Assembly (NCBI GenBank): GCA_963721455.1
Contig: CAVRJG010000017.1
Location: 1 to 60,921, forward strand
Length of the DNA: 60,921 nt
Origin: an uncultured Methanosarcinaceae archaeon
GTDB taxonomy: Archaea > Halobacteriota > Methanosarcinia > Methanosarcinales > Methanosarcinaceae
Direction: 5' to 3'
How positions within the stretch are numbered: position 1 is the stretch's first letter; the number at the start of each line of letters is the position of its first letter. The translations under genes were made by a program, and so were the position numbers. Shown here piece after piece: positions 5,090 through 17,802 of the stretch. Under the pieces are notes generated by a model, which worked only from the letters and a program-made list of their open reading frames with translations, ran no database searches and was not told the DNA's origin.

Positions 5090-6684
5090 CCTAAGTTTGA
5101 CAGTATCTACTAATTCATAGTGAAAATCGATCCTATTTTTAGCTTAAATGGATTTGACAAAACTTATGAATATATAAAATTTTATTATATATTCTACGGA
5201 ATCGTCCCCATTTTTGTTACAATTAAGCTATTGATCTTATCAAAATTAGCAAAAATATACTTTTTGACCCCATTTTTCAGGAATTTTATTGTAAGTGTCA
5301 AATTCATCAAGCTTTTTTTGATGAATTTTGTGGACCTATGTTTAATCTCCTTGAATTCATATCGCATTAGCGATATGAATAACTGAGCAATAAATCCCAG
5401 TAGAATAGCTCCATAAATGCTATCGTCTGACCACACTCTCAATGGCTTAATCTGAATTTCGTTTTTTAACGAGTTGAATATTTTCTCAATAGAATCCTTT
5501 TCTCGATATGTTTCCAATGCTTTCTCAAGTGTCAAATCTTTGTTCGATTTGAGACAAAAAAATCCTTCTCTTCCATTAATTATCGAACTTTTTAGGAGTT
5601 CTATTGCTTCCTCATCACTAAGCTCTTCGAGCTTAGTCCTGAAAGAGTAATCAATTTCAATCAACTCATTGTTGACTCTGAATTTTTTGGGAAGCTTTTT
5701 ATTCTTTACGATTACTTCCTGGATCTCTTTCGCTTCTTGTAACTTCTTTAGAACAGTTCTTGCTTTAGATTCCAGCTGTTTCTTCTGTAAAGATTCAGAG
5801 TAATAAAAATACTTGATGCTACTTGGCTTGACGATTTTTATCCCATATATACTTTTTTCGGAATCTACCAGTTCAGCTGTTTTTGGATCGAAATTCTCAA
5901 TAATTTTTTCGTCACTTGTATTCAGTTTCATGGAAGTGAGATACTTCATCTCATCTTCTTGTATCAACTTAATATTGTCTGCTGTATTAGCCCCTTTATC
6001 AAAAACAATAAGAGAACCTTCTTTAAGTTTACTTTTTACCTGATTATAAGTATCGGGAAAATGCTGCAGATCAAGAACGTTTCCTCTATTCACTGTAATT
6101 CCAGTAGGTATGTTTATGGGTTTTTTGAGTTCACTAACTCCAACTGTTATCTGTAGCTTATCAGGTCTATGATCTCTACTGTATCCATACTTGCCAAGTT
6201 TGGATTTAGTGCCGTGAAGAACTATACTTGTCCAGTCAAGGTTTATATCCGTCTCTTCAAAATCATAAATCGAAAACAGACTGTTTAGAATATCCGAGAG
6301 GATTTCTTCTTTGTTACGCCCCAGGATTTCAAGGGTTCTGTAAAGAACTCTTTCATGGAATCTTTCAAGGTTTAAGATGTCGAGAATTTCTTCCTGATTT
6401 AACCATTTGCCAGCTTCCTTGATGCTGAAATTATCGGTGAGCTTATAGCTTATCAATCCTACCAATAAACTATTGAGATCAAGACCCTTGCTTTTATGCT
6501 TGCCAAAAATATCACAAAAATGAAGCTTTTCATAGTAAGATTGGACAGCAAGAATTGATCCTATAGGAACACATATATTCTTGTTCGGAATTGTAGGAAA
6601 TGCTCTCTGTTTTGTGTTTAGATTCATTTGACCGAATAACACAAAACAAAGAGCACTTATTTTTATCTAACTGTCAAAGTCAGG
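5090..6684 (-). mobile_element. IS1634-family insertion sequence
   Basis: Imperfect TIRs CCTAAGTTTGACAGT (5090) and ACTGTCAAAGTCAGG (6670-6684); intact transposase inside; no target-site duplication visible. Confidence 0.88.
5194..6627 (-). CDS. IS1634-family DDE transposase
   Basis: NLDWTS, GYSRDHRPDKLQI, VFDKG and YREKDSIEKIF..LK motifs; ATG at 6627. Confidence 0.9.
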   Translation of the reverse strand: MNLNTKQRAFPTIPNKNICVPIGSILAVQSYYEKLHFCDIFGKHKSKGLDLNSLLVGLISYKLTDNFSIKEAGKWLNQEEILDILNLERFHERVLYRTLEILGRNKEEILSDILNSLFSIYDFEETDINLDWTSIVLHGTKSKLGKYGYSRDHRPDKLQITVGVSELKKPINIPTGITVNRGNVLDLQHFPDTYNQVKSKLKEGSLIVFDKGANTADNIKLIQEDEMKYLTSMKLNTSDEKIIENFDPKTAELVDSEKSIYGIKIVKPSSIKYFYYSESLQKKQLESKARTVLKKLQEAKEIQEVIVKNKKLPKKFRVNNELIEIDYSFRTKLEELSDEEAIELLKSSIINGREGFFCLKSNKDLTLEKALETYREKDSIEKIFNSLKNEIQIKPLRVWSDDSIYGAILLGFIAQLFISLMRYEFKEIKHRSTKFIKKSLMNLTLTIKFLKNGVKKYIFANFDKINSLIVTKMGTIP

Positions 6685-8378
6685 GTATTATTCTCTGCTT
6701 TTTGATCATCCTCGGAGATTATAGCAAACTCTAAACTATTTATGGATGTATTTTCAATCACTGCATTCAAAGATTCAAGAATTTCAGACGTATTGCTCGA
6801 GGAATTGTTCTCTCCTTCATTTCCTGTTGAATGGGTATAACATATGAATAAATAAGACATAAGAATAATCATAACCAGCGCGACAGCGCAAAAAACTGTT
6901 TTGATATTCCTGTTTCGTTTCCTTTTTTTCATCCTTTTTTTTGAATCCAGGTAATCTGAACTCTGGATTCTATCCAGATTTTCCGCTTCTTCTTCTCTTA
7001 ACTTTGAAATAAAGTCATTATTGCCTTTTAGCTCAACCAGGTCTTCTATCAGAGTTTTGAGAAGAATTTTTCCCTCGGTTTTTGGCTTTGAAGGCGCTTC
7101 GCTGGCAATAAATTTTACAAAATTAATCTTGTCTGAATATTCTAAGAGTTTTAGTGCTTTTTTAACTCCTTTCTCAAAAGAGTTATACTTAGAATCTCTT
7201 CTAGAATTCTGTGCCCACTCGTTATCTAAATGGTTTAGAGGTAAATTCTCCCGTGAAGTCTTATTAAAGAGCAAATTGAACAAATCTTTGTTATGTTCTT
7301 TATGCATAGTTAGTACAAGATCCGCAATGAGGTCTTCAATATATATATTCCCCGAGAGTAATATTTTATAAAGATCTTTCCTGCATTCTGACGATTCAAT
7401 TTTGCTATAGATATTTATGAGAACTTTTCTAATATTGGGATCGTTTACATCAGTGGCTTTTTGCACCAATCCCTGAAATATTTCAACTTTCTCCAGATCA
7501 TCAAAGTTGTCTAAAATAGAATTAGGAGAACTGCAATAATAGAATGGGTCACTTAAGATTTTTTTCACAATAAGGCTTACGGAATCTGACCTGGTTTTAC
7601 TTCCTTTTGAATAAGAAGTTTTACCTTTAAAGAGTTCTTCACCCAACTCTTTATAAAAATTCCAGGATCCCGATTTAGTAAATTTTCGGAACGTTCCGTT
7701 TTCTCCGAGCTCAAAATCCGGGTTTGGTTTGATGAAACTAACAGAAACGTCAGCTTCTGAAGGATATTGAGAAATATCAAAAATATATGTAAATCTGTGC
7801 CTTAATATGGTAATTAATTTAAGGATAAGGGAAAGTCCACTACTGAGTTCTGAAATCTTGACAGATACTTTTTTGCGAGAACGAATCTTGCCTGCTGTGT
7901 ATTCCAAAACTTCTTTTTCTATAGGGGTCTCGCTAATATTTTTAAAGTCCCCTTCCTCCCAAAATCCAACTAGCTTATATTTCTTCACGTCGAGATTTTC
8001 TACCTCAAATTTAACCCTCTCATAGAACTGCTTTAATAACTGAATATCAGAAACAATCTCATCCTGTAATGATAAATTTTTGTAGACCTGGATAAATACG
8101 ACTCTTTCTTCTCTTCCATTATCAGCCTTTACACTCAAACTGCACCCAAATATGAGTTCATTCTCTTTTGATTCCAGATAAAGTGCACTTCTTTTTGTAT
8201 CAAGCTGCGTTGCCAGTTCAGTGTATTGTTCAAAAAGTGTACTGCCTTTTAATAGCTGGCCCGTTGAATTATATATTCCATAATCTGAGTTATGGCTGGT
8301 ATTGGAGAGGTGGAAAAAAGCAAAGCTCTCTGGATTTTTATCACGATGATTAGAAGCTGAATTTCCCAATTTCTCCAA
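6663..8378 (-). CDS. Large single-pass membrane protein of unknown function; C-terminus truncated by IS1634
   Basis: 571-aa ORF with a TTG start overlapping the upstream GTPase gene; basic stretch KKRMKKRKRNRNIK, then hydrophobic TVFCAVALVMIILMSYLFICY; last residues LTLTVR are read from the IS end. Confidence 0.75.
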   Translation of the reverse strand: MEKLGNSASNHRDKNPESFAFFHLSNTSHNSDYGIYNSTGQLLKGSTLFEQYTELATQLDTKRSALYLESKENELIFGCSLSVKADNGREERVVFIQVYKNLSLQDEIVSDIQLLKQFYERVKFEVENLDVKKYKLVGFWEEGDFKNISETPIEKEVLEYTAGKIRSRKKVSVKISELSSGLSLILKLITILRHRFTYIFDISQYPSEADVSVSFIKPNPDFELGENGTFRKFTKSGSWNFYKELGEELFKGKTSYSKGSKTRSDSVSLIVKKILSDPFYYCSSPNSILDNFDDLEKVEIFQGLVQKATDVNDPNIRKVLINIYSKIESSECRKDLYKILLSGNIYIEDLIADLVLTMHKEHNKDLFNLLFNKTSRENLPLNHLDNEWAQNSRRDSKYNSFEKGVKKALKLLEYSDKINFVKFIASEAPSKPKTEGKILLKTLIEDLVELKGNNDFISKLREEEAENLDRIQSSDYLDSKKRMKKRKRNRNIKTVFCAVALVMIILMSYLFICYTHSTGNEGENNSSSNTSEILESLNAVIENTSINSLEFAIISEDDQKAENNTLTLTVR

Positions 8379-9804
8379 CCCTCCATGGATTTATTTTTGG
8401 ATATTCCCGCTGAATTTCCGGATTCTCACTTTCTATTGTGAGAGGTTTCATGGTTGCATCCACACTGACCGTGTACATGTAGATCGGCATTTGATATGCC
8501 ATATTTACAATTTCCTTGAATGTGGTAATCTCGCAGAACAGATCATATATTTCATGCTCTATATCCCTGGCTTCTTTTGAATCCTCTATAATCTTGGAAA
8601 GATCCTTAAACATGTCAGTCTTGGTCACCACAATCGCATACGATTTCTCATTCCCGAATATATTGATGATATTTGAGTAGTGACCGAAGAGTTGTGTCAA
8701 ATTTGTTTTGCCGCCATTATGGTAGTCAACGATATGATCTCCGTCTACTAGGAAAATGATTTTCCCTGCACTTTCAAATCTGTTATATATATGGGCAAAG
8801 GTGACTTTCTCTACAGTCTCTGCAAATTCATTTTTATGATTATCTCGCAGGTTTTTTATAAAATCTATATTTCCCATATTCTGTTCCAGTGTGGGAACGT
8901 CTATATTGAAACGTTTGTTGAGTTCTTCAATTATTGTCCCATATTGCGTGGGATCAAAATTTTTTGTATGTTCTCCCCCGTAGTCGACAAATGTCATTCC
9001 TACAGGTTTAACTCCTTTTTTGCCTGATAACAAATATATTGCAAGATCTGTCTGGAGGTTGCTTCTTGGAAGTTCTCCCTTCTCTATATCTGCAAGCATA
9101 TTTTCAATCTTTAAACTTTCTTTGTTTTTTTCCGACACGATAATTTCTTTTCTCTGACCCCCCAGAACAGTTACAAACTGATTGTAGAATGCAAGCAGTA
9201 ACAATGTTTTTCCGGATCTTGAAGGCCCATACACAAATACATCATAAGCCCTTATACCGCGAATGGTCTTCGTCAGAAGGAAAGAAAATGTAAATAAAGT
9301 TCCTATCAAAATCATAAATTCAAAAATCTCGTTTGAACCACTTGACATGAACTCCGGTTCTTGAGAAAACCACATAATCTCAATCAAAGCCAGGATTAGA
9401 TACAATGAGGTAAATACAACAAAAATCAGGATGAATCGACGTAAATACATTGCAAGCCTGTCAAAGCGATTATTATAATAGGAATAAAAGCTTAAGCACC
9501 CACCTTCCAACATTCCAAGCACAAATCCGTCAATACGTAAAAACCCGCTTACGTAAAAGACGTACATAAACGGCAAGAACACTGCAAGTAAGAAAATTCC
9601 CCCGATTCTGGAGCGAAACTCGAGAATCATCCCAATTGCACTTGAAATAAATGATGCGACGAAAAAGCTGAAAGTGAGTTTTATGTACCATCCTGTATCT
9701 GATAGCCAGTAGGGCATACTCATATGTAAAAAAATAAGGGAAAGGAGAACCCCCAATAAAACCAGAATGATTTCAAAAATCGTATGAGTCCTACTTATTT
9801 TCAA
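8350..9804 (-). CDS. Multi-TM membrane-bound P-loop GTPase (TRAFAC-like)
   Basis: About 5-6 hydrophobic helices in the first ~180 aa, then G1 GPSRSGKT, G3 DYGG and G4 TKTD. Confidence 0.8.
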   Translation of the reverse strand: MKISRTHTIFEIILVLLGVLLSLIFLHMSMPYWLSDTGWYIKLTFSFFVASFISSAIGMILEFRSRIGGIFLLAVFLPFMYVFYVSGFLRIDGFVLGMLEGGCLSFYSYYNNRFDRLAMYLRRFILIFVVFTSLYLILALIEIMWFSQEPEFMSSGSNEIFEFMILIGTLFTFSFLLTKTIRGIRAYDVFVYGPSRSGKTLLLLAFYNQFVTVLGGQRKEIIVSEKNKESLKIENMLADIEKGELPRSNLQTDLAIYLLSGKKGVKPVGMTFVDYGGEHTKNFDPTQYGTIIEELNKRFNIDVPTLEQNMGNIDFIKNLRDNHKNEFAETVEKVTFAHIYNRFESAGKIIFLVDGDHIVDYHNGGKTNLTQLFGHYSNIINIFGNEKSYAIVVTKTDMFKDLSKIIEDSKEARDIEHEIYDLFCEITTFKEIVNMAYQMPIYMYTVSVDATMKPLTIESENPEIQREYPKINPWRVGEIGKFSF

Positions 9805-12800
9805 GCTTCAGGGCCTCCTTTAATGACTTCGTTTTATAAAGGCTCTTGATCTCCTGGGGAATTTCCTCTATCCTTTCATTGTTTGCAATCTTTCCGGCTG
9901 CTTCCGAGCTTAAGAGGGCATTTCGGGTTATGTACTCTCCATCCTGAAGTTTCAGGACATGATGCAGTATATTTTCCTTATTCCTTGCATAAATTTCCCA
10001 GTAACCTCCTCCGGCTACCAGGGGATAAATGTTGTCAAGAAAACTTGATGCGGCAAAAAAGGTCAGAGCAATCTCCCAGGGTTTTGTATGTCCATGGGGA
10101 GTAAGCAGGGAATCATTAGGTTTTTTCAAAGACAGGCTCTGATTGATATCTTTACTGATCATGCTTTTCATGAGCTCAGAACGTACATATCCGGAAGTGG
10201 ATGATACAACTAAAGCAGCTTTCCCAAAAGTCCACCTTTCGGTCTCGCCGATTGAAATTTTTAAAGAATTTACTCCAAGTTTCCTACTTTCAAACAGGTC
10301 CTGATATGTTGATTTTGCGAGGTTTATGAGTTTATCAAGTTCTAATTTCCCGTTTTTGTCCATGTCAAGGCTGCCCATATCAGGACTGGCATTCGTATCA
10401 GAACTGCCTTCCACGAGAGACAGGATCTGGGGGTTGACACTTCCAAATTTGGTTTTGTATATGCCCTTTTTCGTCCGTTTTCCGGCTTCTATTTTTTTAT
10501 TGATCAGCTCAAAATGTTCATGGAAATACTCATAATGCAGATTGAAATTTTTTCGGCTTGAAAATGTTTCCGTGTTGGTGGCATCGACTTTAACAAGCAT
10601 ATCATACTGCAGCTGCTTTTCTTCTATTTCTCGGTTTATATCTTTAATGTATTTATTTAACTCTTCCATACTATTGAAGTAATTAGCAGCTTCTAAATGG
10701 AGTTCTGTCAGATTTTCTCGCAAGAACTGCCTGATTTTCACCCTGTCATCGGATGCAAATATTGTGTCAAGTTTTTCACTGGATATATTATTTGTATTTA
10801 AATCTGCAAATATAGAATTACAGATCCTTTCTCGAAGTACTTCAACTTTTTTAATTAAATCTACAGTTAAAAAGTTTTCAGGTATGATGATGTTAAAGGG
10901 TGTATCGATACGAATCGCCCAGTATTTCATATTTGATTTGATATAATCTTCTTCTTTCCCGGCATGCTCTTTATATTTTTTTATTAGTTGCTTTCTCTTC
11001 CCCAGTATAAGTGCACGCAAGCCGCCCTTTTCAACTTCTTTTACCTTATATTTATAAAAATAATAATTGGTAACGGAATTAATAAACCTGCTTAAGCTTT
11101 CAAGATCACATTCGTTCTCTTTTGAGATAGCCTCAATTTCCATTCTAATATCTTTAGTGCCAGCAGACAAAAACCAGCTATTTTTATCGTTCCCTCTAAC
11201 TTTCCCGGTACTCAGTTTCTCTATATATCGATCTAATGTTTCTTTCAATTTTTGTTCATTATCCGGGAGGTATTTGATATTCCGGTTGAGTTTTGCATAG
11301 GACTCAAGGTCAAGATCAGTATCATTTAATTTATCTTTGATCTTTTTGTCGACCTCGATAGGCAGAGAATTTAGCTCGGCCATTTTCTGCTCGGTCGGCT
11401 TCAGCTTCGTGTTCAGATTTTGGATTTCCTGACTCTTGGCGTTCAGGGCTCCAAGAAGAGGAGATATATCCTTTTTCCCTTTCAGGATATTAATCATTAC
11501 AGACCTGCAATCTTCATTCTCAACCGCTGCAACCCGCTTGAATAAATTTGCATTTTTTTCCAGAGTCTCAAGAGCTTCTGGAATCAAACGGAATAATTTT
11601 TTATCGATCTCATCTTTGAGTTTCTCTTGAGCAACGCCTTGAGCAAAATTATTAACTCGTGAAATATAGGATGTCAGGTCATTATAGGTTCCAATCTTTT
11701 CAAATTGAATCTCTGAAATGTTATATTTAATAAATTCCTCTATTTGTTCCACGCTGTGATAATTAAGCAGTTTTGCGATGTTGTTTGTCCACACTTTTTC
11801 AATATTTCTATACTCAGTTTTTATGAACTCAAAGACTTCCATCGTTGGAGTGGATTCTCCACTGATGTTGAACTTAATAAGGAGGCCTTCGATAATCTCG
11901 TTTACATTTTTCCTGACAGCATCAATTTCTCCCAGTTCATGAATAATCTGGCTGTACTGCTCCTTTAATTCCCTGAGCTCTTCTACGGGGTATTCGATTA
12001 CATGCGAATCGGCAAAAATAAAAGAAGAATAGGATTTTCTTGCGTCACTAAGGTTAAGATCACTTCTCTCTATATGGAAGAAGTTAGTGAGAATCTGCGG
12101 GAAGACAGAATCAAATTCATCTACTTCTTCGAGCTCATACTGTCCGTTGGTATACTCCGTGGGACCCAGAGATGTAAATATTACATGATCGAAAAGTCTC
12201 TCATCGTGAGACACGTTTAAGTATTCAAGCTCTGTAAGGGAAATGGCAGCATTAAGCTGTTCTTTTTCTCCTTCTTTTGTCGTTGGAAGTACTACAAAGA
12301 GATAGACTGCATCATCTCGTTTTTCCTTGATATATCTTGCAAGGTCTATGAACATGCCTGAGCCAGTACCTCCCCCGATCCCGACTATGATGGCAGTGAC
12401 TCCCGGATTCGAAAAGGTAGGGAACCCATTTGCTTGCCCTTCACTCAAAACTTTATACAGAATAGCTTTTGAAACCGCTCTTCTGCGATGCACACCACCC
12501 CCGAAATCATCCATGATGAAGTGATCAATACGTTTCAGGTCCTGAAAAGTAACTCCATCGTTTTCGGGATCATTCAACCACCACGTTTTGATCGAGCGGG
12601 ATCTTTTTATGCTTGCTGAAACTTCAGCGCTGGTTAAATCGGATACATGTGTAATATTTGCAAGGTTTGGTAGATAGTAGGACTTAAATTCGATGTTTCC
12701 CGCTCCCTCCAGATTATCTACTTTCTCCATGATTTTTGTTTCCCACCGCTGATCCTCTGCAGATTCATTGGCGTCCGTATCCATCGTATAAATCTTAAGC

Positions 12801-12946
12801 CTGTTCACATCATTGGAGTAGTAGTGGAGTAGCCAATCGTAATCGCATATTTCACGAGCAAGTTTTTTTCCGCATCCTCCCAAACCCACAATTGTTAGGT
12901 TTGGAGGGTACTTAAAAGATTGACTCGAGTCATCTACCCTTTTCAT
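9791..12946 (-). CDS. FtsZ/tubulin-superfamily protein (Tubulin_2/FtsZl1-like) with a long helical/coiled-coil insert
   Basis: IVGLGGCG (T1), MDTD (T2), GIGGGTGSG (tubulin signature), VLPTTKEG, DLNLSD (T7-like); residues ~320-830 are K/E/N-rich and helical. Confidence 0.88.
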   Translation of the reverse strand: MKRVDDSSQSFKYPPNLTIVGLGGCGKKLAREICDYDWLLHYYSNDVNRLKIYTMDTDANESAEDQRWETKIMEKVDNLEGAGNIEFKSYYLPNLANITHVSDLTSAEVSASIKRSRSIKTWWLNDPENDGVTFQDLKRIDHFIMDDFGGGVHRRRAVSKAILYKVLSEGQANGFPTFSNPGVTAIIVGIGGGTGSGMFIDLARYIKEKRDDAVYLFVVLPTTKEGEKEQLNAAISLTELEYLNVSHDERLFDHVIFTSLGPTEYTNGQYELEEVDEFDSVFPQILTNFFHIERSDLNLSDARKSYSSFIFADSHVIEYPVEELRELKEQYSQIIHELGEIDAVRKNVNEIIEGLLIKFNISGESTPTMEVFEFIKTEYRNIEKVWTNNIAKLLNYHSVEQIEEFIKYNISEIQFEKIGTYNDLTSYISRVNNFAQGVAQEKLKDEIDKKLFRLIPEALETLEKNANLFKRVAAVENEDCRSVMINILKGKKDISPLLGALNAKSQEIQNLNTKLKPTEQKMAELNSLPIEVDKKIKDKLNDTDLDLESYAKLNRNIKYLPDNEQKLKETLDRYIEKLSTGKVRGNDKNSWFLSAGTKDIRMEIEAISKENECDLESLSRFINSVTNYYFYKYKVKEVEKGGLRALILGKRKQLIKKYKEHAGKEEDYIKSNMKYWAIRIDTPFNIIIPENFLTVDLIKKVEVLRERICNSIFADLNTNNISSEKLDTIFASDDRVKIRQFLRENLTELHLEAANYFNSMEELNKYIKDINREIEEKQLQYDMLVKVDATNTETFSSRKNFNLHYEYFHEHFELINKKIEAGKRTKKGIYKTKFGSVNPQILSLVEGSSDTNASPDMGSLDMDKNGKLELDKLINLAKSTYQDLFESRKLGVNSLKISIGETERWTFGKAALVVSSTSGYVRSELMKSMISKDINQSLSLKKPNDSLLTPHGHTKPWEIALTFFAASSFLDNIYPLVAGGGYWEIYARNKENILHHVLKLQDGEYITRNALLSSEAAGKIANNERIEEIPQEIKSLYKTKSLKEALKLENK

Positions 12947-13674
12947 TCGGTATCTTCTCCTGCATCGATGTCATCCTTAGAATTGAACCTCACACCAATT
13001 AAAAAACCGACCATAAGGCCTAGAATTGTGCCTGGAATAAGCCACCAGTATGAAGGCCATTTATCATTTTCAGTCAAATGATCAGCAAGTGTTTTTGACT
13101 CCTTAACAAGCCCTTTATCATGCAGGTCCTGCAGATATTTTTTGAAAAAAGGATCATCGATTTCATTAATCTGTTCTCGGAATGATTCAACTTCAGGTAT
13201 TGAAATTTCGAAGGGACGTGTTTCCACGCTTTCGATCAGATTTCCTTTACTGTTTGTAAGTGTTATTCTGTCATAAGCGTAGCCCGTACTTTGTTTATAT
13301 GTTACAAGTGTTACTCCATCATACTGTTTCTTATTGGTAATTTGTGGGATTTGTCCATTAATAGTAACAATAATTGACGTTGCGCTTTCATTAACTGGAA
13401 AATCAAATTTGTTAGCATCACTTGTAAAGTTCAAATTTGTGAAATTATATAAATGGGAATCATCAACTTTAACCAGATCAGTGTCAAAAGAGATATAATC
13501 TGCAGCTGGTGGGATATTATTTATTGTTAATGTGTAACTTATTACCTGTCCCTCTAAAACTTTGTCTTGTGTTTGACCATTGATCTCAATGTTTGTTGCT
13601 GATGCCGTACTTGCAAGAAGTAAAAGTAAGAACAGTGATAAAAATAAGTAGTTTACACCCTTGAATGATTTCAT
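12943..13674 (-). CDS. Secreted/surface protein with C-terminal membrane anchor
   Basis: MKSFKGVNYLFLSLFLLLLLASTASA signal peptide, beta-rich body, C-terminal WWLIPGTILGLMVGFLIGVRF; stop overlaps the ATG of the tubulin-like gene (ATGA). Confidence 0.8.
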   Translation of the reverse strand: MKSFKGVNYLFLSLFLLLLLASTASATNIEINGQTQDKVLEGQVISYTLTINNIPPAADYISFDTDLVKVDDSHLYNFTNLNFTSDANKFDFPVNESATSIIVTINGQIPQITNKKQYDGVTLVTYKQSTGYAYDRITLTNSKGNLIESVETRPFEISIPEVESFREQINEIDDPFFKKYLQDLHDKGLVKESKTLADHLTENDKWPSYWWLIPGTILGLMVGFLIGVRFNSKDDIDAGEDTE

Positions 13675-13934
13675 TTTTTTATTACACCACCGCTTTAACA
13701 TTATTTAACGATACCCTCTTTGTTAAATAGTTTATACTACAGGATGATTTTTTAATTAAACAGCTATTTAATACCATTTAACTATACCATTATTCATTTA
13801 TTCATTTATAGTCGACGTAGAAAATATTTACACATATAAACAAGAACGACAACTGTAATTTAAACATTTAGAAGTATAGTTAATTTTTGAGTTGAATAAA
13901 ATTTCTCAGTTGGTCATAATTCAAGCGAAAAGAT

Positions 13935-14007
13935 AAACCACTGAAAGCACGGAAAACACGGACTGAAGGAAACACGGGCACAGAGATTTCCGTACTCTCC
14001 GTGGTTA
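13935..14007. repeat. REP-like palindromic element (AACCAC..CACGG units ... CCGTGGTT)
   Basis: Repeated CACGG units followed by their complements TTCCGT/CTCCGTGGTT. Confidence 0.5.
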
Positions 14008-14480
14008 TAGAGTCTGGATTGAGTTTTTCTATGCCCATCGGTGTTTTTGATTATAGAGTTAGAATTATAGTGTTTAACAGTGTATTTAATTTGTGTGTTG
14101 ACTATAAATAGTTTACACTATTGAAGGACTTTTTACTACCCCACTGCTTTAACATTATTTAACTATACCATCATTAATTTGTATTGGATTTCACCCGACA
14201 TTCCGCAGACGTTCTCAAGAAAATAACATTTTTCTGACTATCTTTTTTGGCATTACTCAAAAATCCGTAATTATCTTTATCTCATAGGGTCTTCAAAAAA
14301 TTCATCAAAAATTTTTATGTTTCTTACAGATACATTTTTTGCGTTTAATTAACAGGTGAGATTTTGCAGGCTTCGTTTGCACCAGAAACTCGAGTTGAAG
14401 CCAGAGTTTCGCTTCAGTTGTGGCTTAAACAAAGTGTTGAACTATTCACTTTAAATGAAAAAACAATAAATTGATCTTAC

Positions 14481-15176
14481 ATGAAAATCCACGTCCTCCA
14501 GCACTCCTCTATAAACACCCTCGGCACTATCGAAGAATACGCAAAAATTAAAAACTACCCGCTTGAGTCAACCCGCTTTTACGAAACCGAAACTCCTCCA
14601 AAACTTGATTCTTTTGACCTTCTTATCATCATGGGCGGTCCGATAGGAGTTTATGATTATAAAGAAAATCCCTGGCTCAGAGACGAAAAAGAGTTTATCA
14701 AACAGGCAATAATGGAAGGAAAACCAGTTCTCGGAATCTGCCTTGGAGCTCAGTTGCTTGCCGACGTCCTGGGCTCCCGCGTTTATGAAAATAAGTACAT
14801 GGAAATGGGCTGGTTCCCTATTCGGGCAACAGCAGATGAGAATAAACCAGACTTTCTTAAAGGGCTGCCGGAAGAGATTACAGTTTTTCACTGGCATGGC
14901 GGGACTTTTGACCTGCCTGCCGGCGCTGTTCACCTTTTTGAAAGCGAAGGATGCAAAAATCAGGGTTTCATTTATGACGGCAGGGTTGTGGCTCTGCAAT
15001 TTCACCCTGAAGTAAATGAAGAGAGAATCAAATCCTTTATAACGCGATTTGGGGATGGAATGGTAGATGGGCCGTTTGTCCAGAAGGAAAAGGAGATGCT
15101 GGAGCAGAGAAAACATCTGGCTGGAACAAAGGAATTTATGTTTTTGATTCTGGAAAAATTTGGGAAACTGATTTAA
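14481..15176 (+). CDS. Type 1 glutamine amidotransferase (GMP synthase-like)
   Basis: IIMGGP, LGICLGAQL (catalytic Cys), FHWHG and LQFHPE (His-Glu). Confidence 0.9.
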   Translation: MKIHVLQHSSINTLGTIEEYAKIKNYPLESTRFYETETPPKLDSFDLLIIMGGPIGVYDYKENPWLRDEKEFIKQAIMEGKPVLGICLGAQLLADVLGSRVYENKYMEMGWFPIRATADENKPDFLKGLPEEITVFHWHGGTFDLPAGAVHLFESEGCKNQGFIYDGRVVALQFHPEVNEERIKSFITRFGDGMVDGPFVQKEKEMLEQRKHLAGTKEFMFLILEKFGKLI

Positions 15177-15207: not shown

Positions 15208-17802
15208 TTATTCTTTTGAGAAAATCCCTTTCATTCCTCCTGAGATCAGGGTTGCTATGTCTTTTAAGGCAAGGCCCTGCTTAAGCCCTTTGGGGAGGGC
15301 AATATATTTCGGACTCCATACAGGATTGAATTTCTCCTTAAAGTCCCGGAGTCCTTTGTAATTATAAAAATGTTCTCCGTGGGTAAAGATTAACGACCCT
15401 ATTTTATTCCACATAGGGGCAAACTGCCTCTTTTCAAACCCTGAGAGGGGAGCCATCCCGAGGGAAAAACGCCTGTATCCGTTTTCTTTTCCCCAGATCA
15501 TGAGCTTGACAAAAAGGTATTCCATTGTCCTGTCCGGGGCATCTGGACTGTGGCGCATCAGGTCAACACTGATTTCTTCCTTTTCTGCACCTATCCAGAT
15601 GTTTGCAAAGGCAACAATTTCGGTTTCATTCCTGACAATGGCAACCGGGAAATTACTCAGATATTTCTCGTCAAAAAAGCCCACCGAAAATCTCTTTTCC
15701 TTTCCGGCTTTCATTTCCAGCCACGCATCCGAGACCTTTTTAAGCTCAGGCATGAGGCCGGGGACTCCCTCTGGAGGGATTATCTCAAACTGATATCCCT
15801 TTTTTTCTACATTCTTTACTGTATATCGGAAGTCTTTGCTTGCACTTCCTTCCAGGGTGAAAGAATCGAGTGGCACCTTTGCTTCCTCCCCTATTTTGAT
15901 CAGGGTCAGGCCGAGGTCAAGAAAAACGGGAATGCATCTTTCGCCCACTTCATAAAAAGCGGCTCTTCCCTGATGTAATTTACTCATTTCATAAAAATCC
16001 CAGATTAGCTCTTTTGCCTGATCGCTGGTCCCGACAATATCTCCCATTGAAATCCAGGTCCTTCCGGAAACCCCGTACATTAAAAAAGCCTTTTTTTCAT
16101 CGTCAAAAAGCAGATATTTGTCTCCGGTAAATACCAGATTTCCCCAGGTTTCCTGACTTTGATTGATAATCGTTTTTGCAAGCTCCGTCTCCTCTTTTTC
16201 GGGAAGGTGAATGTCCATGGAAAAGGGGCTCAGCATCTTCGCGATCCCGAAAACAAGAAGTAAGAAGAAAACTCCAACTGTAGCCCTTAAAAAGCTGGAT
16301 GCCTGGGAATTAATCCCGAATTGCCACCAGAGTTCGTTTGAATACTCTACGTGCCTGTATGAAAAAAACCCGAGCCATACGAAGCTTACAAGCACCAGAG
16401 CTATAGCAATAATATTCTCCCTGCTAAAAGACTGGTGCAAAAGCGAGGATTTTCGGTAAAAATATTTCCTGCACGGAAGTAAAAAGACGAACAGGATAAA
16501 AAGAACAACTGCCTCATGATAATCAAAGTCTTTCAGGAAGGCAAAAAGCCCGCCCATAGAAAGGACAGCAAGGGAGAGCACATAAGCCCCATCGATCCTT
16601 TTCCAGAGTCCATTTGCCAGGAGCAGGAGTAATATGCCCATTATGCTGCCAAAAAACCTGGATGCTTCGATAAGGGGAAGGGGAACAATGTAAGTGATAT
16701 CATGCAAATATTTCGGGTTTGAAGGCAGGGCTCCGGAAAAAAGGAGGGAGATACCTCCAAAAAAGATCAGAATTGAAAAAATCTGGGGCGTTAGCTCTGA
16801 TAGGCCTGAATATGTAGCTTTCCCAATTTTTTCCAGGAATTTTTTTCTCTCTTCAAATTCATATATTATAAGGGCCAGGAACCCAAACAGGAACGGAATA
16901 AAATAGTAAACTGCCCTGAAGAGCAAAAGAGGTCTTATTATATCAACCGTATCGAAGTAAGGCTCCAGCATAAATAACATCAGGGTCTCAAAAACCCCGA
17001 GCCCGCCTGGGACAGTACTTATCAGCCCTATGACCTGCGCCAGTGCAAAGAACACAAGTACATGAAGCAGGGTAAGCTGTGGATTTGAGGGCAGAAGGAA
17101 ATAGATTATGCTCCCTGAAAGCAGATAGTCTACCGAGGATAAGGCAAGCTGTAAGAACGCGACTTTTGGTTCAGGGACTCTGATCTGGTATTCTTTTATC
17201 TTAAGACTTTGCTTCCTGAATGAAAAAAAGAAATAAGCAGCAAGAAACAGCAGTAACAGAATTCCAATTATATTTAACGGAACAGGAATCTCAGGCATGT
17301 AAATTGGCAATTTAACCGGATAAAATATGAAAAGCAAGCCTGCAACAAAACAAAAGCCGATCCAGAAGGTAAAAATGCAAAAAATTATAATTTCCCAGAT
17401 ATGGGCAAATGTCAGCCCGTACCTTGAATACAGCCTGTAACGGAGAGAGCTTCCGGTTAAAAAGTTAAAACCTATACTGTAACTGATGGATGTGCTGATA
17501 AAAGAAATCCAGGCAGTCCGTTTATAAGGCATTGAATTGTTTATATGGCGGACTGCAAGGTAATCGTAACCTGTCAAAGCAAGATAGCTTAAGAAAGTTA
17601 AAAAGAATGCAAGCTCTATATGGCTCAGGGGAACGCTTGCAATACTTCTTATAATATATATCGAGTGTAAATGGTGTATCTGTTTATCCAGGGTCCATAG
17701 AGCCAGGGAGAATATAATAACTGGTAAGAGATAACTGAGAAGGCTCTTTAATTTAGGGATTTTTTCCTTTATACTTCCTTTAGCCATCATCGAGACCAGC
17801 AT
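15208..17802 (-). CDS. mprF: Bifunctional aminoacyl-phosphatidylglycerol synthase/flippase MprF
   Basis: Many TM helices with PGGLGVFE, then a synthase domain with KIGEEA, EKRFSVG, DLMRH, SLGMAPLSG and YNYKGLRDFKEKFNP; true start may be a few codons downstream. Confidence 0.93.
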   Translation of the reverse strand: MLVSMMAKGSIKEKIPKLKSLLSYLLPVIIFSLALWTLDKQIHHLHSIYIIRSIASVPLSHIELAFFLTFLSYLALTGYDYLAVRHINNSMPYKRTAWISFISTSISYSIGFNFLTGSSLRYRLYSRYGLTFAHIWEIIIFCIFTFWIGFCFVAGLLFIFYPVKLPIYMPEIPVPLNIIGILLLLFLAAYFFFSFRKQSLKIKEYQIRVPEPKVAFLQLALSSVDYLLSGSIIYFLLPSNPQLTLLHVLVFFALAQVIGLISTVPGGLGVFETLMLFMLEPYFDTVDIIRPLLLFRAVYYFIPFLFGFLALIIYEFEERKKFLEKIGKATYSGLSELTPQIFSILIFFGGISLLFSGALPSNPKYLHDITYIVPLPLIEASRFFGSIMGILLLLLANGLWKRIDGAYVLSLAVLSMGGLFAFLKDFDYHEAVVLFILFVFLLPCRKYFYRKSSLLHQSFSRENIIAIALVLVSFVWLGFFSYRHVEYSNELWWQFGINSQASSFLRATVGVFFLLLVFGIAKMLSPFSMDIHLPEKEETELAKTIINQSQETWGNLVFTGDKYLLFDDEKKAFLMYGVSGRTWISMGDIVGTSDQAKELIWDFYEMSKLHQGRAAFYEVGERCIPVFLDLGLTLIKIGEEAKVPLDSFTLEGSASKDFRYTVKNVEKKGYQFEIIPPEGVPGLMPELKKVSDAWLEMKAGKEKRFSVGFFDEKYLSNFPVAIVRNETEIVAFANIWIGAEKEEISVDLMRHSPDAPDRTMEYLFVKLMIWGKENGYRRFSLGMAPLSGFEKRQFAPMWNKIGSLIFTHGEHFYNYKGLRDFKEKFNPVWSPKYIALPKGLKQGLALKDIATLISGGMKGIFSKE

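Follow-up and report, generated by a model that had tools for sequence, protein, structure and literature searches.

Makarova and Koonin (2010, PMC2875224) predicted operons built around FtsZ-like proteins of the FtsZl1 family, for which Tubulin_2 is now the Pfam model (PMC9871819, in the portion available). According to the accessible parts of the 2010 paper, the founding member Huta_2051 is a protein of 1051 amino acids (aa), and the family layout consists of an FtsZ-like domain at the N terminus, with the GGGTGSG signature, followed by a long coiled-coil or helical part, T6-H7 and a tubulin-like C-terminal domain not being found by sequence. The operons include a divergent GTPase bearing the Walker A and Walker B motifs plus TxKD, which is membrane-associated in archaea and not in bacteria, together with the archaea-specific families A1-A2 (drawn in Figure 2C). 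A protein with a vWA domain is found in most predicted operons and is not stated in those parts to be required in archaea. Methanosarcina acetivorans is in the species list of the Figure 1 alignment, and the operons were read as devices for membrane remodelling and vesicle formation. Here we describe a locus of four genes (g1 to g4) at positions 6663-13674, minus strand, of a 60,921-nucleotide (nt) stretch of DNA from an uncultured Methanosarcinaceae archaeon (contig CAVRJG010000017.1, assembly GCA_963721455.1), the whole of which is called the window below.

The bacterial systems built on DO-GTPases and GAP1 proteins are the second point of comparison (Kaur, Burroughs, Iyer and Aravind 2020, PMC7159879). 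As described in the accessible text of that survey, DO-GTPases are TRAFAC GTPases with a conserved Walker B Glu as hallmark, 13% of them have N-terminal transmembrane (TM) segments, and the gene for their partner, GAP1, usually lies downstream of the GTPase gene. In GAP1-N2 systems, GAP1 often has C-terminal TM segments and extracellular domains, TM-bearing DO-GTPases occur, and about half of the systems centre on tubulin-domain genes, which are fused to a coiled coil in firmicutes. Archaea are mentioned only as 'a few' in the same text. The literature searched, with subscription journals outside its coverage, yielded no experimental study of the FtsZl1 family, and the DO-GTPase literature found was comparative-genomic by title and abstract.

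The locus in the window is an archaeal FtsZl1 operon of the kind predicted in 2010 and not a new architecture, because its tubulin-like protein matches Tubulin_2 above the cut-off, has a length and layout like those of Huta_2051, and is encoded next to a membrane GTPase with a TxKD motif. A preliminary description of this DNA, made from the letters alone, had already proposed the FtsZl1 link, which the Tubulin_2 match, the 1051-aa layout and the adjacent GTPase gene bear out. It had also remarked on the lack of a vWA gene and had suggested a variant architecture on that ground. The remark was correct, as no vWA domain match was obtained in g1-g4 at E<=0.1 (Pfam), but the suggestion falls since the 2010 paper, as far as its accessible parts go, already gives archaeal FtsZl1 operons membrane-associated GTPases and families A1-A2. 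The products of g1 and g4 are obvious candidates for these two families.

The operon comprises four overlapping, head-to-tail open reading frames (ORFs) in the ORF list of the window, and the ORFs, the hydropathy scan and the alignments agree with the products given to them in the preliminary description. All are on the minus strand. Gene g1 (12943..13674) encodes a type I membrane protein of 243 aa, as deduced from hydropathy, a 16-sequence alignment and the public gene call; g2 (9791..12946) encodes the FtsZl1/Tubulin_2 protein of 1051 aa (ORF and Pfam); g3 (8350..9804) encodes a polytopic membrane GTPase of 484 aa (hydropathy and a 24-sequence alignment); and g4 (6663..8378) encodes a protein of 571 aa, or 568 aa in public calls, characterized by alignment, hydropathy and a model. 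The frame of g1 is open to 13701, the ATG at 13674 being the likelier start, in agreement with the public call. Overlaps amount to 4 nt for g1/g2, 14 nt for g2/g3 and 20-29 nt, varying with the start chosen, for g3/g4. In the public annotation g2 is a 'tubulin-like doman-containing protein' and g1, g3 and g4 are hypothetical.

The g2 protein matches Pfam Tubulin_2 (PF13809) with 45.3 bits (cut-off 27, E 9.5e-12) and Pfam Tubulin with 36.8 bits (cut-off 33), the two matches covering residues 185-247. Its T4 signature GGGTGSG (12356..12376, minus strand; residues 191-197) was located by alignment, and G191, G192, G193, G195 and G197 are invariant in 26 sequences. Also conserved are a T1 loop GxGGCGK, a family-specific T3-like motif DDFGGGVHRRR and an invariant Asn232; no TM segment was detected by the hydropathy scan. 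With its nucleotide loops conserved in this way, g2 is, on sequence grounds, a tubulin-superfamily GTP-binding protein. After an H7-like helix, at the expected T7 position, an acidic loop (residues 293-301, with E293, D296 and D301) is kept by the orthologues but varies among distant members. The genome holds one copy of g2, and a weak second match (8.8e-4) was found in a 391-aa frame.

An AlphaFold2 model of g2, computed from 26 FtsZl1 sequences with no templates, reached a mean pLDDT of 85.4 and a pTM of 0.66. A Foldseek search with this model against the PDB returned CetZ2, CetZ1, TubZ, FtsZ and tubulins among 109 matches at E<=1e-3, and the model ranges 13-991 and 15-1025 align with whole FtsZ, CetZ and tubulin chains. 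As nearly whole chains are aligned up to residue ~990, the C-terminal half of the tubulin fold would be supplied by residues ~895-1015. Between strand 309-318 and this returning half lies a coiled-coil-like insert (10277..11986, minus strand; residues ~321-890), almost all of it helix in the model, whose exact boundaries are deduced from the model secondary structure. The g2 protein is thus predicted to have a complete two-domain fold of the FtsZ/CetZ type, split by a helical insert of ~570 residues. In the order of elements the insert appears to follow the first strand after the H7-like helix, roughly at the site of tubulin's lateral-contact loop. A profile search of g2 against PDB sequences retrieved CetZ, TubZ and FtsZ only over T4-H5 and otherwise coiled-coil noise (ClpB, apolipoprotein). 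Since sequence profiles reach only T4-H5, it is the model that provides the complete fold.

The g3 protein begins with five hydrophobic segments in residues 1-180, followed by a cytoplasmic GTPase domain. Its Walker A motif, the P-loop GPSRSGKT, lies at 9205..9228 on the minus strand (residues 193-200, by alignment), and the motifs DYGGE and TKTD follow, with family forms DYxGE and TKxD. G193, P194, G198 and K199, D274, Y275 and G277, and T394, K395 and D397 are invariant in 24 sequences, with E278 shared by at least 90% of them; this last residue, after the motif glycine, corresponds to the Walker B Glu that is the hallmark of DO-GTPases. Eighteen of the 24 family members match PF19993 (DO-GTPase2) at E<=0.05, the best at 1.3e-6, four also match DO-GTPase1 (PF19975), and a precomputed PF19993 annotation is carried by 13 of 67 database homologues of g3. 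We have therefore filed g3, from these motifs and profile matches, as a divergent member or close relative of the DO-GTPase family, an assignment that is new here. In five planctomycete genomes holding GAP1-N2, no match to PF19993 was obtained.

For g1, a signal-peptide-like hydrophobic stretch (15-33) and a C-terminal TM segment (221-239, both numbered from 13701), then an acidic tail, were recognized. In the layout resolved by the 16-sequence alignment, the signal peptide leads into ~120 aa of beta-rich extracellular domain, after which come a conserved helical stalk (DPFF..YLQDL.DKGL), the TM segment and an acidic cytoplasmic tail. Database similarity was limited to a faint match to Pfam DUF7927 (0.0015, below the cut-off) and to a nearest Atlas cluster auto-named 'putative DUF11 domain-containing protein' (score 0.98), which may be g1's own cluster. 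A 'PGT' ahead of the TM segment had suggested PGF-CTERM/archaeosortase sorting, an idea rejected because neither NCBIfam nor Pfam gave a match.

The g4 protein has a three-part cytoplasmic body, one TM segment (495-513) and a variable external tail that is rich in N, S and T and contains sequons; both g1 and g4 are accordingly predicted to expose parts at the cell surface. The conserved N-terminal alpha/beta module (7683..8291, minus strand; residues 30-232) is made of a roadblock/longin-like first domain and a second alpha/beta domain, and carries the motif GREERVVFI in the alignment. The middle is variable and helical, and is deleted in two genomes. The C-terminal part contains a conserved juxtamembrane helix, the TM segment and the tail, which is hypervariable and includes a PKD domain in one member. 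The family is small: a search of 1.84 billion proteins yielded 96 representatives at E<=1e-3. As a side observation, one Methanosarcina genome (L032, 11530-13995) has a g4 of 821 aa in which the conserved N-terminal module is tandemly duplicated, and an M. acetivorans homologue (P0164) has 818 aa, a length close to that duplicated form.

The model of g4 has a pLDDT of 78.1 overall and ~90 in the N-terminal module, whose first domain shows the element order beta-beta-alpha-beta-beta-beta-alpha. Foldseek gave nothing at E<=1e-3. The top rows were DENND1A/B-Rab35, TagF, C9orf72-SMCR8, DENND10, FLCN-FNIP, MglB (probability 0.99), LAMTOR and dynein roadblock, at middling Z, and in the model the first domain resembles modules of the roadblock/longin/DENN kind, which act as regulators of small GTPases. 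By sequence, g4 had no Pfam match to Robl_LC7 and an hhalign probability below 1% against 18 Robl_LC7 sequences of related methanogens. Separately, a Robl_LC7 (PF03259) gene was found neither in the window's genome nor in 8 other genomes of its genus, and 2 to 9 such genes each were found in four genomes of other families of the same order.

A counterpart of GAP1 was expected in g4 because the gene lies downstream of the GTPase and its product has a C-terminal TM segment and an external part, as in bacterial GAP1; the three-part body of g4 also speaks for this, GAP1 being divided into GAP1-N, -M and -C. In an Atlas feature search with residues 25-475, all ten best named matches were GAP1-N2, GAP1-N1 or GAP1-M clusters (0.93, 198/256 features), an agreement comparable to that obtained also for a third of shuffled proteins. 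Pfam found no GAP1 among genes lying downstream of distant FtsZl1 loci, those of haloarchaea included. We regard g4 as an analogue of GAP1 and as a possible remote homologue.

The cassette is conserved as a block. In a survey of the family, 27 of 151 genomes had a match at E<=1e-10, one of them only to a distant paralogue. By genus, matches were obtained in 11 of 34 genomes of the window's own genus, in 7 of 34, 6 of 6 (genus g13), 1 of 3 and 1 of 3 genomes of other genera, and in none of eleven further genera. From the 29 places found in this survey 16 loci were fetched, 14 orthologous and 2 distant; the order g1-g2-g3 is kept in all 14 orthologous loci, with g4 intact in 13 and fragmented in one. 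When each species was represented by one genome, 80 loci were recovered, namely 37 of orthologue type, 36 distant and 7 without a g2 ORF on short or broken contigs. Among the 34 orthologue loci with enough flank, g1 and g3 are each in place in 34 and g4 in 33, and the complete g1-g2-g3-g4 order is kept in 33, across Methanosarcinaceae and Methanomicrobiales. Some species are shared between the two sets and the loci are mutually related, so these counts are not independent. Co-occurrence of the homologues is thus strong, contrary to the outcome that the preliminary description had named as speaking against its proposal.

Orthologues occur in Methanosarcina, Methanolobus, Methanosalsum, Methanofollis and many Methanomicrobiales, and in the Methanomicrobiales an extra fifth co-oriented gene codes for a protein with four PEGA domains. 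The most variable product is g4, with identities of 24-59% vs 44-73% for g2 when the near-identical locus of one genome (G055) is left out; in that locus the identities are 88% for g4 and 96% for g2. Distant FtsZl1 loci are mostly haloarchaeal, and in 17 of 31 of them g2 is followed by a g3-like gene according to hidden Markov model (HMM) searches. In some loci of haloarchaea, kinases are joined to CarboxypepD_reg repeats, an arrangement also present in the 2010 paper's Halorhabdus locus. The sole DO-GTPase2 match downstream of distant FtsZl1 loci (7.2e-5) is on a contig labelled WOR-3. Two observations (L144 and L138) concern taxonomic labels: an archaeal-type g1-g2-GTPase-x block is present on the contig of a metagenome-assembled genome labelled candidate division WOR-3 bacterium, and a g2 fragment, 42% identical, on a short contig labelled Conexivisphaerales; misbinning or transfer is possible in both cases.

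Distant paralogues also turned up on plasmids, three in number and all archaeal: pMETEV01 of Methanohalobium, one from the Natrialbaceae, and p117 of Halorubrum. On pMETEV01, pilin-like, tubulin-like, GTPase-like and PGF-pre-PGF genes follow the same order as g1-g4, a pilin-like protein taking the place of g1 and a PGF-pre-PGF protein that of g4. Plasmid p117 of Halorubrum sp. BOL3-1 (L079) has a tubulin-like gene with two hypothetical genes; upstream of these, on the opposite strand and beyond an ISH3 transposase, lie genes for an Hsp70-family and a VWA protein, an arrangement which recalls the GTPase-tubulin-HSP70 systems described for bacteria. In another Methanosarcinaceae genome (L038, G067:C14, 4017-9589), the gene before a distant FtsZl1 paralogue (1095 aa) joins a caspase (Peptidase_C14) to an FGE-sulfatase (FGS) domain, and the gene after the paralogue encodes a DUF2971 protein; no g3-like GTPase was found beside the paralogue. 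A search for relatives in a viral contig collection produced 128 pattern matches, none of which was confirmed.

Several features suggest that the cassette moves. It is 95% identical to that of G055, with an adjoining flank that is 77% identical, which points to a recent exchange of the cassette between species; with another genome (G116), cassette and flank are both ~78-82% identical. The chromosomal context differs between genomes. Decayed copies are present elsewhere, with in-frame stops or fragments in three genomes (G041, G106 and G130) and a fragmented g4 in the locus L046. The operon has a G+C content of 0.37 vs a mean of 0.458 (sd 0.05) for the 24 other long ORFs of the window, some of which are possibly not genes, and this agrees with the preliminary description of an operon AT-richer than its flanking genes.

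The same description held the operon to be bounded by IS1634, which is true of the downstream side only. The IS1634-family transposase gene (5194..6642, minus strand; NCBIfam 1.8e-54) abuts the 3' end of g4, beginning 20 nt past its stop; it is the single copy within the window and is treated as a boundary marker outside the system. Nucleotide similarity to a related genome stops at 6685, 22 nt within the 3' end of g4. Upstream of g1, the sequence read shows an AT-rich intergenic region (13675..14480, minus strand), the presumed location of the promoter. A sigma-70-type promoter scan, a model ill-suited to archaea, gave 26 sites vs 27.4 expected from shuffles, and the same signal scan predicted terminator-like sites within the operon genes. 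At ~14104-14175, ~450 nt upstream of the real g1 start, there is a degenerate second copy of the g1 5' end (start codon region and signal peptide), with a 78% match to the g1 start region of a related genome. Further upstream, genes for a class-I glutamine amidotransferase (14481-15176) and for an MprF-like lysyl-phosphatidylglycerol synthase homologue (15208-17802; LPG_synthase_C 9e-94) are both syntenic with two related genomes.

Because the reading frames overlap and the gene order is kept across orthologous loci, the four products may be read as parts of one membrane-bound, GTP-regulated machine. In the mechanism that we propose, g3 and g4 would work together as GTPase switch and regulator, the equivalent of the bacterial DO-GTPase-GAP1 pair, and the ectodomains of g1 and g4 would set this switch from outside the cell; in relatives, PEGA, kinase or pilin-like proteins would likewise connect the switch to the surface. 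Once active, the switch would recruit g2 or license its head-to-tail polymerisation beneath the membrane, where the helical inserts would stick out to the side and serve as linkers. In this manner, assembly of a tubulin-like superstructure would be triggered by a signal at the surface, for example an attacking virus or a damaged envelope. The preliminary description had proposed a trans-membrane assembly of two different GTPases, with which all the findings are consistent, and had left the choice between a cytoskeleton and a defence system open.

As to that choice, we lean, at somewhat short of an even chance, toward an accessory, horizontally exchanged module for conflict or stress response. 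The leaning is founded on patchy distribution, recent exchange, decay, low G+C, the abutting insertion sequence (IS) and the variability of g4, as well as on kinship with the systems of Kaur et al. and on the caspase, Hsp70 and vWA neighbours of the paralogues. The same machine may instead serve a housekeeping role, as a non-division cytoskeleton remodelling the membrane or organising the S-layer, the methanochondroitin matrix, pili or cell-cell contacts, and we rate this as a serious contender of somewhat lower probability. Every variant links the cytoplasmic g2-g3 pair to partners bearing beta-sandwich or surface domains outside the cell (g1, PEGA, PKD, CarboxypepD_reg, pilin-like or PGF-pre-PGF), as such a role would have it, and the genome keeps ordinary FtsZ-type genes, so that g2 is not the division protein, an argument also made in the accessible parts of the 2010 paper. 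A housekeeping function is harder to reconcile with the lack of a match in about four fifths of the searched genomes of the family, including 23 of 34 in the same genus, and with the exchange between species, the decayed copies, the low G+C next to an IS, and the caspase-FGS and Hsp70-vWA genes near distant paralogues.

A number of observations weigh against the conflict or stress-response module and its proposed mechanism, and some of them are what a housekeeping cytoskeleton would lead one to expect. Some lineages retain the cassette in all, or almost all, of the genomes sampled (all six of g13; six orthologues in seven genomes of family f27), which fits vertical inheritance of a useful housekeeping function. 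In other genomes, the flanking genes sampled have roles in metabolism or housekeeping (methyltransferase, subunits of molybdopterin oxidoreductase, CbiX, GNAT, FdhD and AnfO). No defence gene or defence island was found among them, and the proximity to defence islands that the preliminary description had proposed to look for is thus not seen. A Pfam scan of g1-g4 identified no nuclease, protease, pore-former or other recognisable effector, and none of the four proteins matched a PADLOC-DB 2.0 family at E<=0.1. Loci of the Methanofollis type are without g4, which is consequently not indispensable. The steps of the mechanism have points against them as well: the catalytic T7 residue of g2 cannot be pinned down from conservation, the split fold is a predicted model from 26 sequences, and the g3 of the window scores 14.1 bits with the DO-GTPase Pfam model (cut-off 27, E 0.037). 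For g4, no GAP1 Pfam match appeared in scans of 14 and 44 family members, none of its 45 database matches has a GAP1 annotation, and hhalign against 12 planctomycete GAP1-N2 proteins gave a probability below 1%.

Two further explanations concern the copy in the window or its carrier. That this copy is a decaying, non-functional remnant, inactivated by IS1634 at the 3' end of g4, is suggested by the point within g4 at which similarity to the related genome stops, by the IS just past the stop codon and by the decayed copies elsewhere; all four frames are nevertheless open and full length, the conserved motifs are intact, and g4 aligns over 1-565 of its 571 residues with an uninterrupted relative, so only the final residues of a low-complexity external tail differ. 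We consider a remnant highly improbable. Marginally more improbable, in our judgement, is a partition or positioning system of a mobile element (plasmid, provirus or Borg-like) working like TubZ or PhuZ. Its attractions are the distant paralogues on archaeal plasmids, the place of TubZ among the best fold matches of g2, and the Tubulin_2 proteins encoded by some Borg elements (PMC9879509, in its accessible part). Orthologous cassettes, however, are chromosomal and lie amid housekeeping genes, no DNA-binding adaptor, centromere repeats or replication genes are alongside, no relative was confirmed in viral contigs, and the partners of g2 are membrane and surface proteins.

A more specific form of the conflict module can be put forward, rather unlikely in its entirety: a surface-triggered immune or damage device in which the ectodomains of g1 and g4 would sense a virus or an injured envelope, a GAP1-like regulator of roadblock type would flip the membrane DO-GTPase, and the split tubulin, with its giant insert at the place of tubulin's lateral-contact loop, would be released by the GTPase to polymerise into a membrane-bound lattice arresting or walling off the cell. 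If true, FtsZl1 would be a tubulin serving as an immune effector, and prokaryotic conflict systems would join eukaryotic trafficking and Asgard archaea as settings in which a GTPase is paired with a regulator of the roadblock/longin kind.

Within the tubulin superfamily, few branches have diverged as far as FtsZl1. Methanosarcina is genetically tractable, which makes the operon a practical place to test this family. The comparison made here connects what two research groups have described separately, the 'membrane remodelling' operon in archaea and the 'conflict system' in bacteria, and adds new predictions, namely that the tubulin fold of g2 is complete but split, that g3 is of the DO-GTPase kind and that g4 may be a regulator, which name specific residues and domain pairs for testing.

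Set against known systems, the operon is closest to the FtsZl1 operons, with which it shares an FtsZ-like domain with GGGTGSG in a protein of ~1050 aa, a long helical middle, an adjacent TxKD GTPase that is membrane-bound in archaea, lineage-specific membrane proteins and the presence of ordinary FtsZ in the same genome. It differs in having no vWA, OmpA or kinase gene, which are mostly bacterial or haloarchaeal features, and in that the model predicts for g2 a complete fold split by a helical insert. With CetZ, FtsZ, TubZ and tubulin g2 shares only 12-17% identity; unlike them it has the ~570-residue insert within its C-terminal half and the extra conserved DDFGGGVHRRR, and has no FtsZ_C or Tubulin_C sequence match. 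The roadblock/longin/DENN regulators (MglA-MglB, Rag-Ragulator, Rab35-DENND1, Mon1-Ccz1) resemble g4 in the predicted fold of its first domain and in the GTPase encoded next to it, whereas the match is one of fold only, at middling Z with no sequence similarity, and g3 is not a Ras-like small GTPase.

The DO-GTPase/GAP1-N2/tubulin conflict systems of Firmicutes and Actinobacteria, as far as the accessible text describes them (PMC7159879), differ from the window's locus in that the latter has a single GTPase gene, no zinc ribbons, no FNIII-repeat protein and no vWA; likewise g4 has no Pfam or profile match to GAP1 and resembles it through a language model only. The likenesses are a GTPase with a Walker B Glu and possible N-terminal TM segments, a downstream partner with a C-terminal TM segment and domains outside the cell, a tubulin domain joined to a coiled coil in one protein, mobile and patchy neighbourhoods and, in relatives of the locus, the recurring PEGA/beta-sandwich, kinase, Hsp70 and vWA themes.

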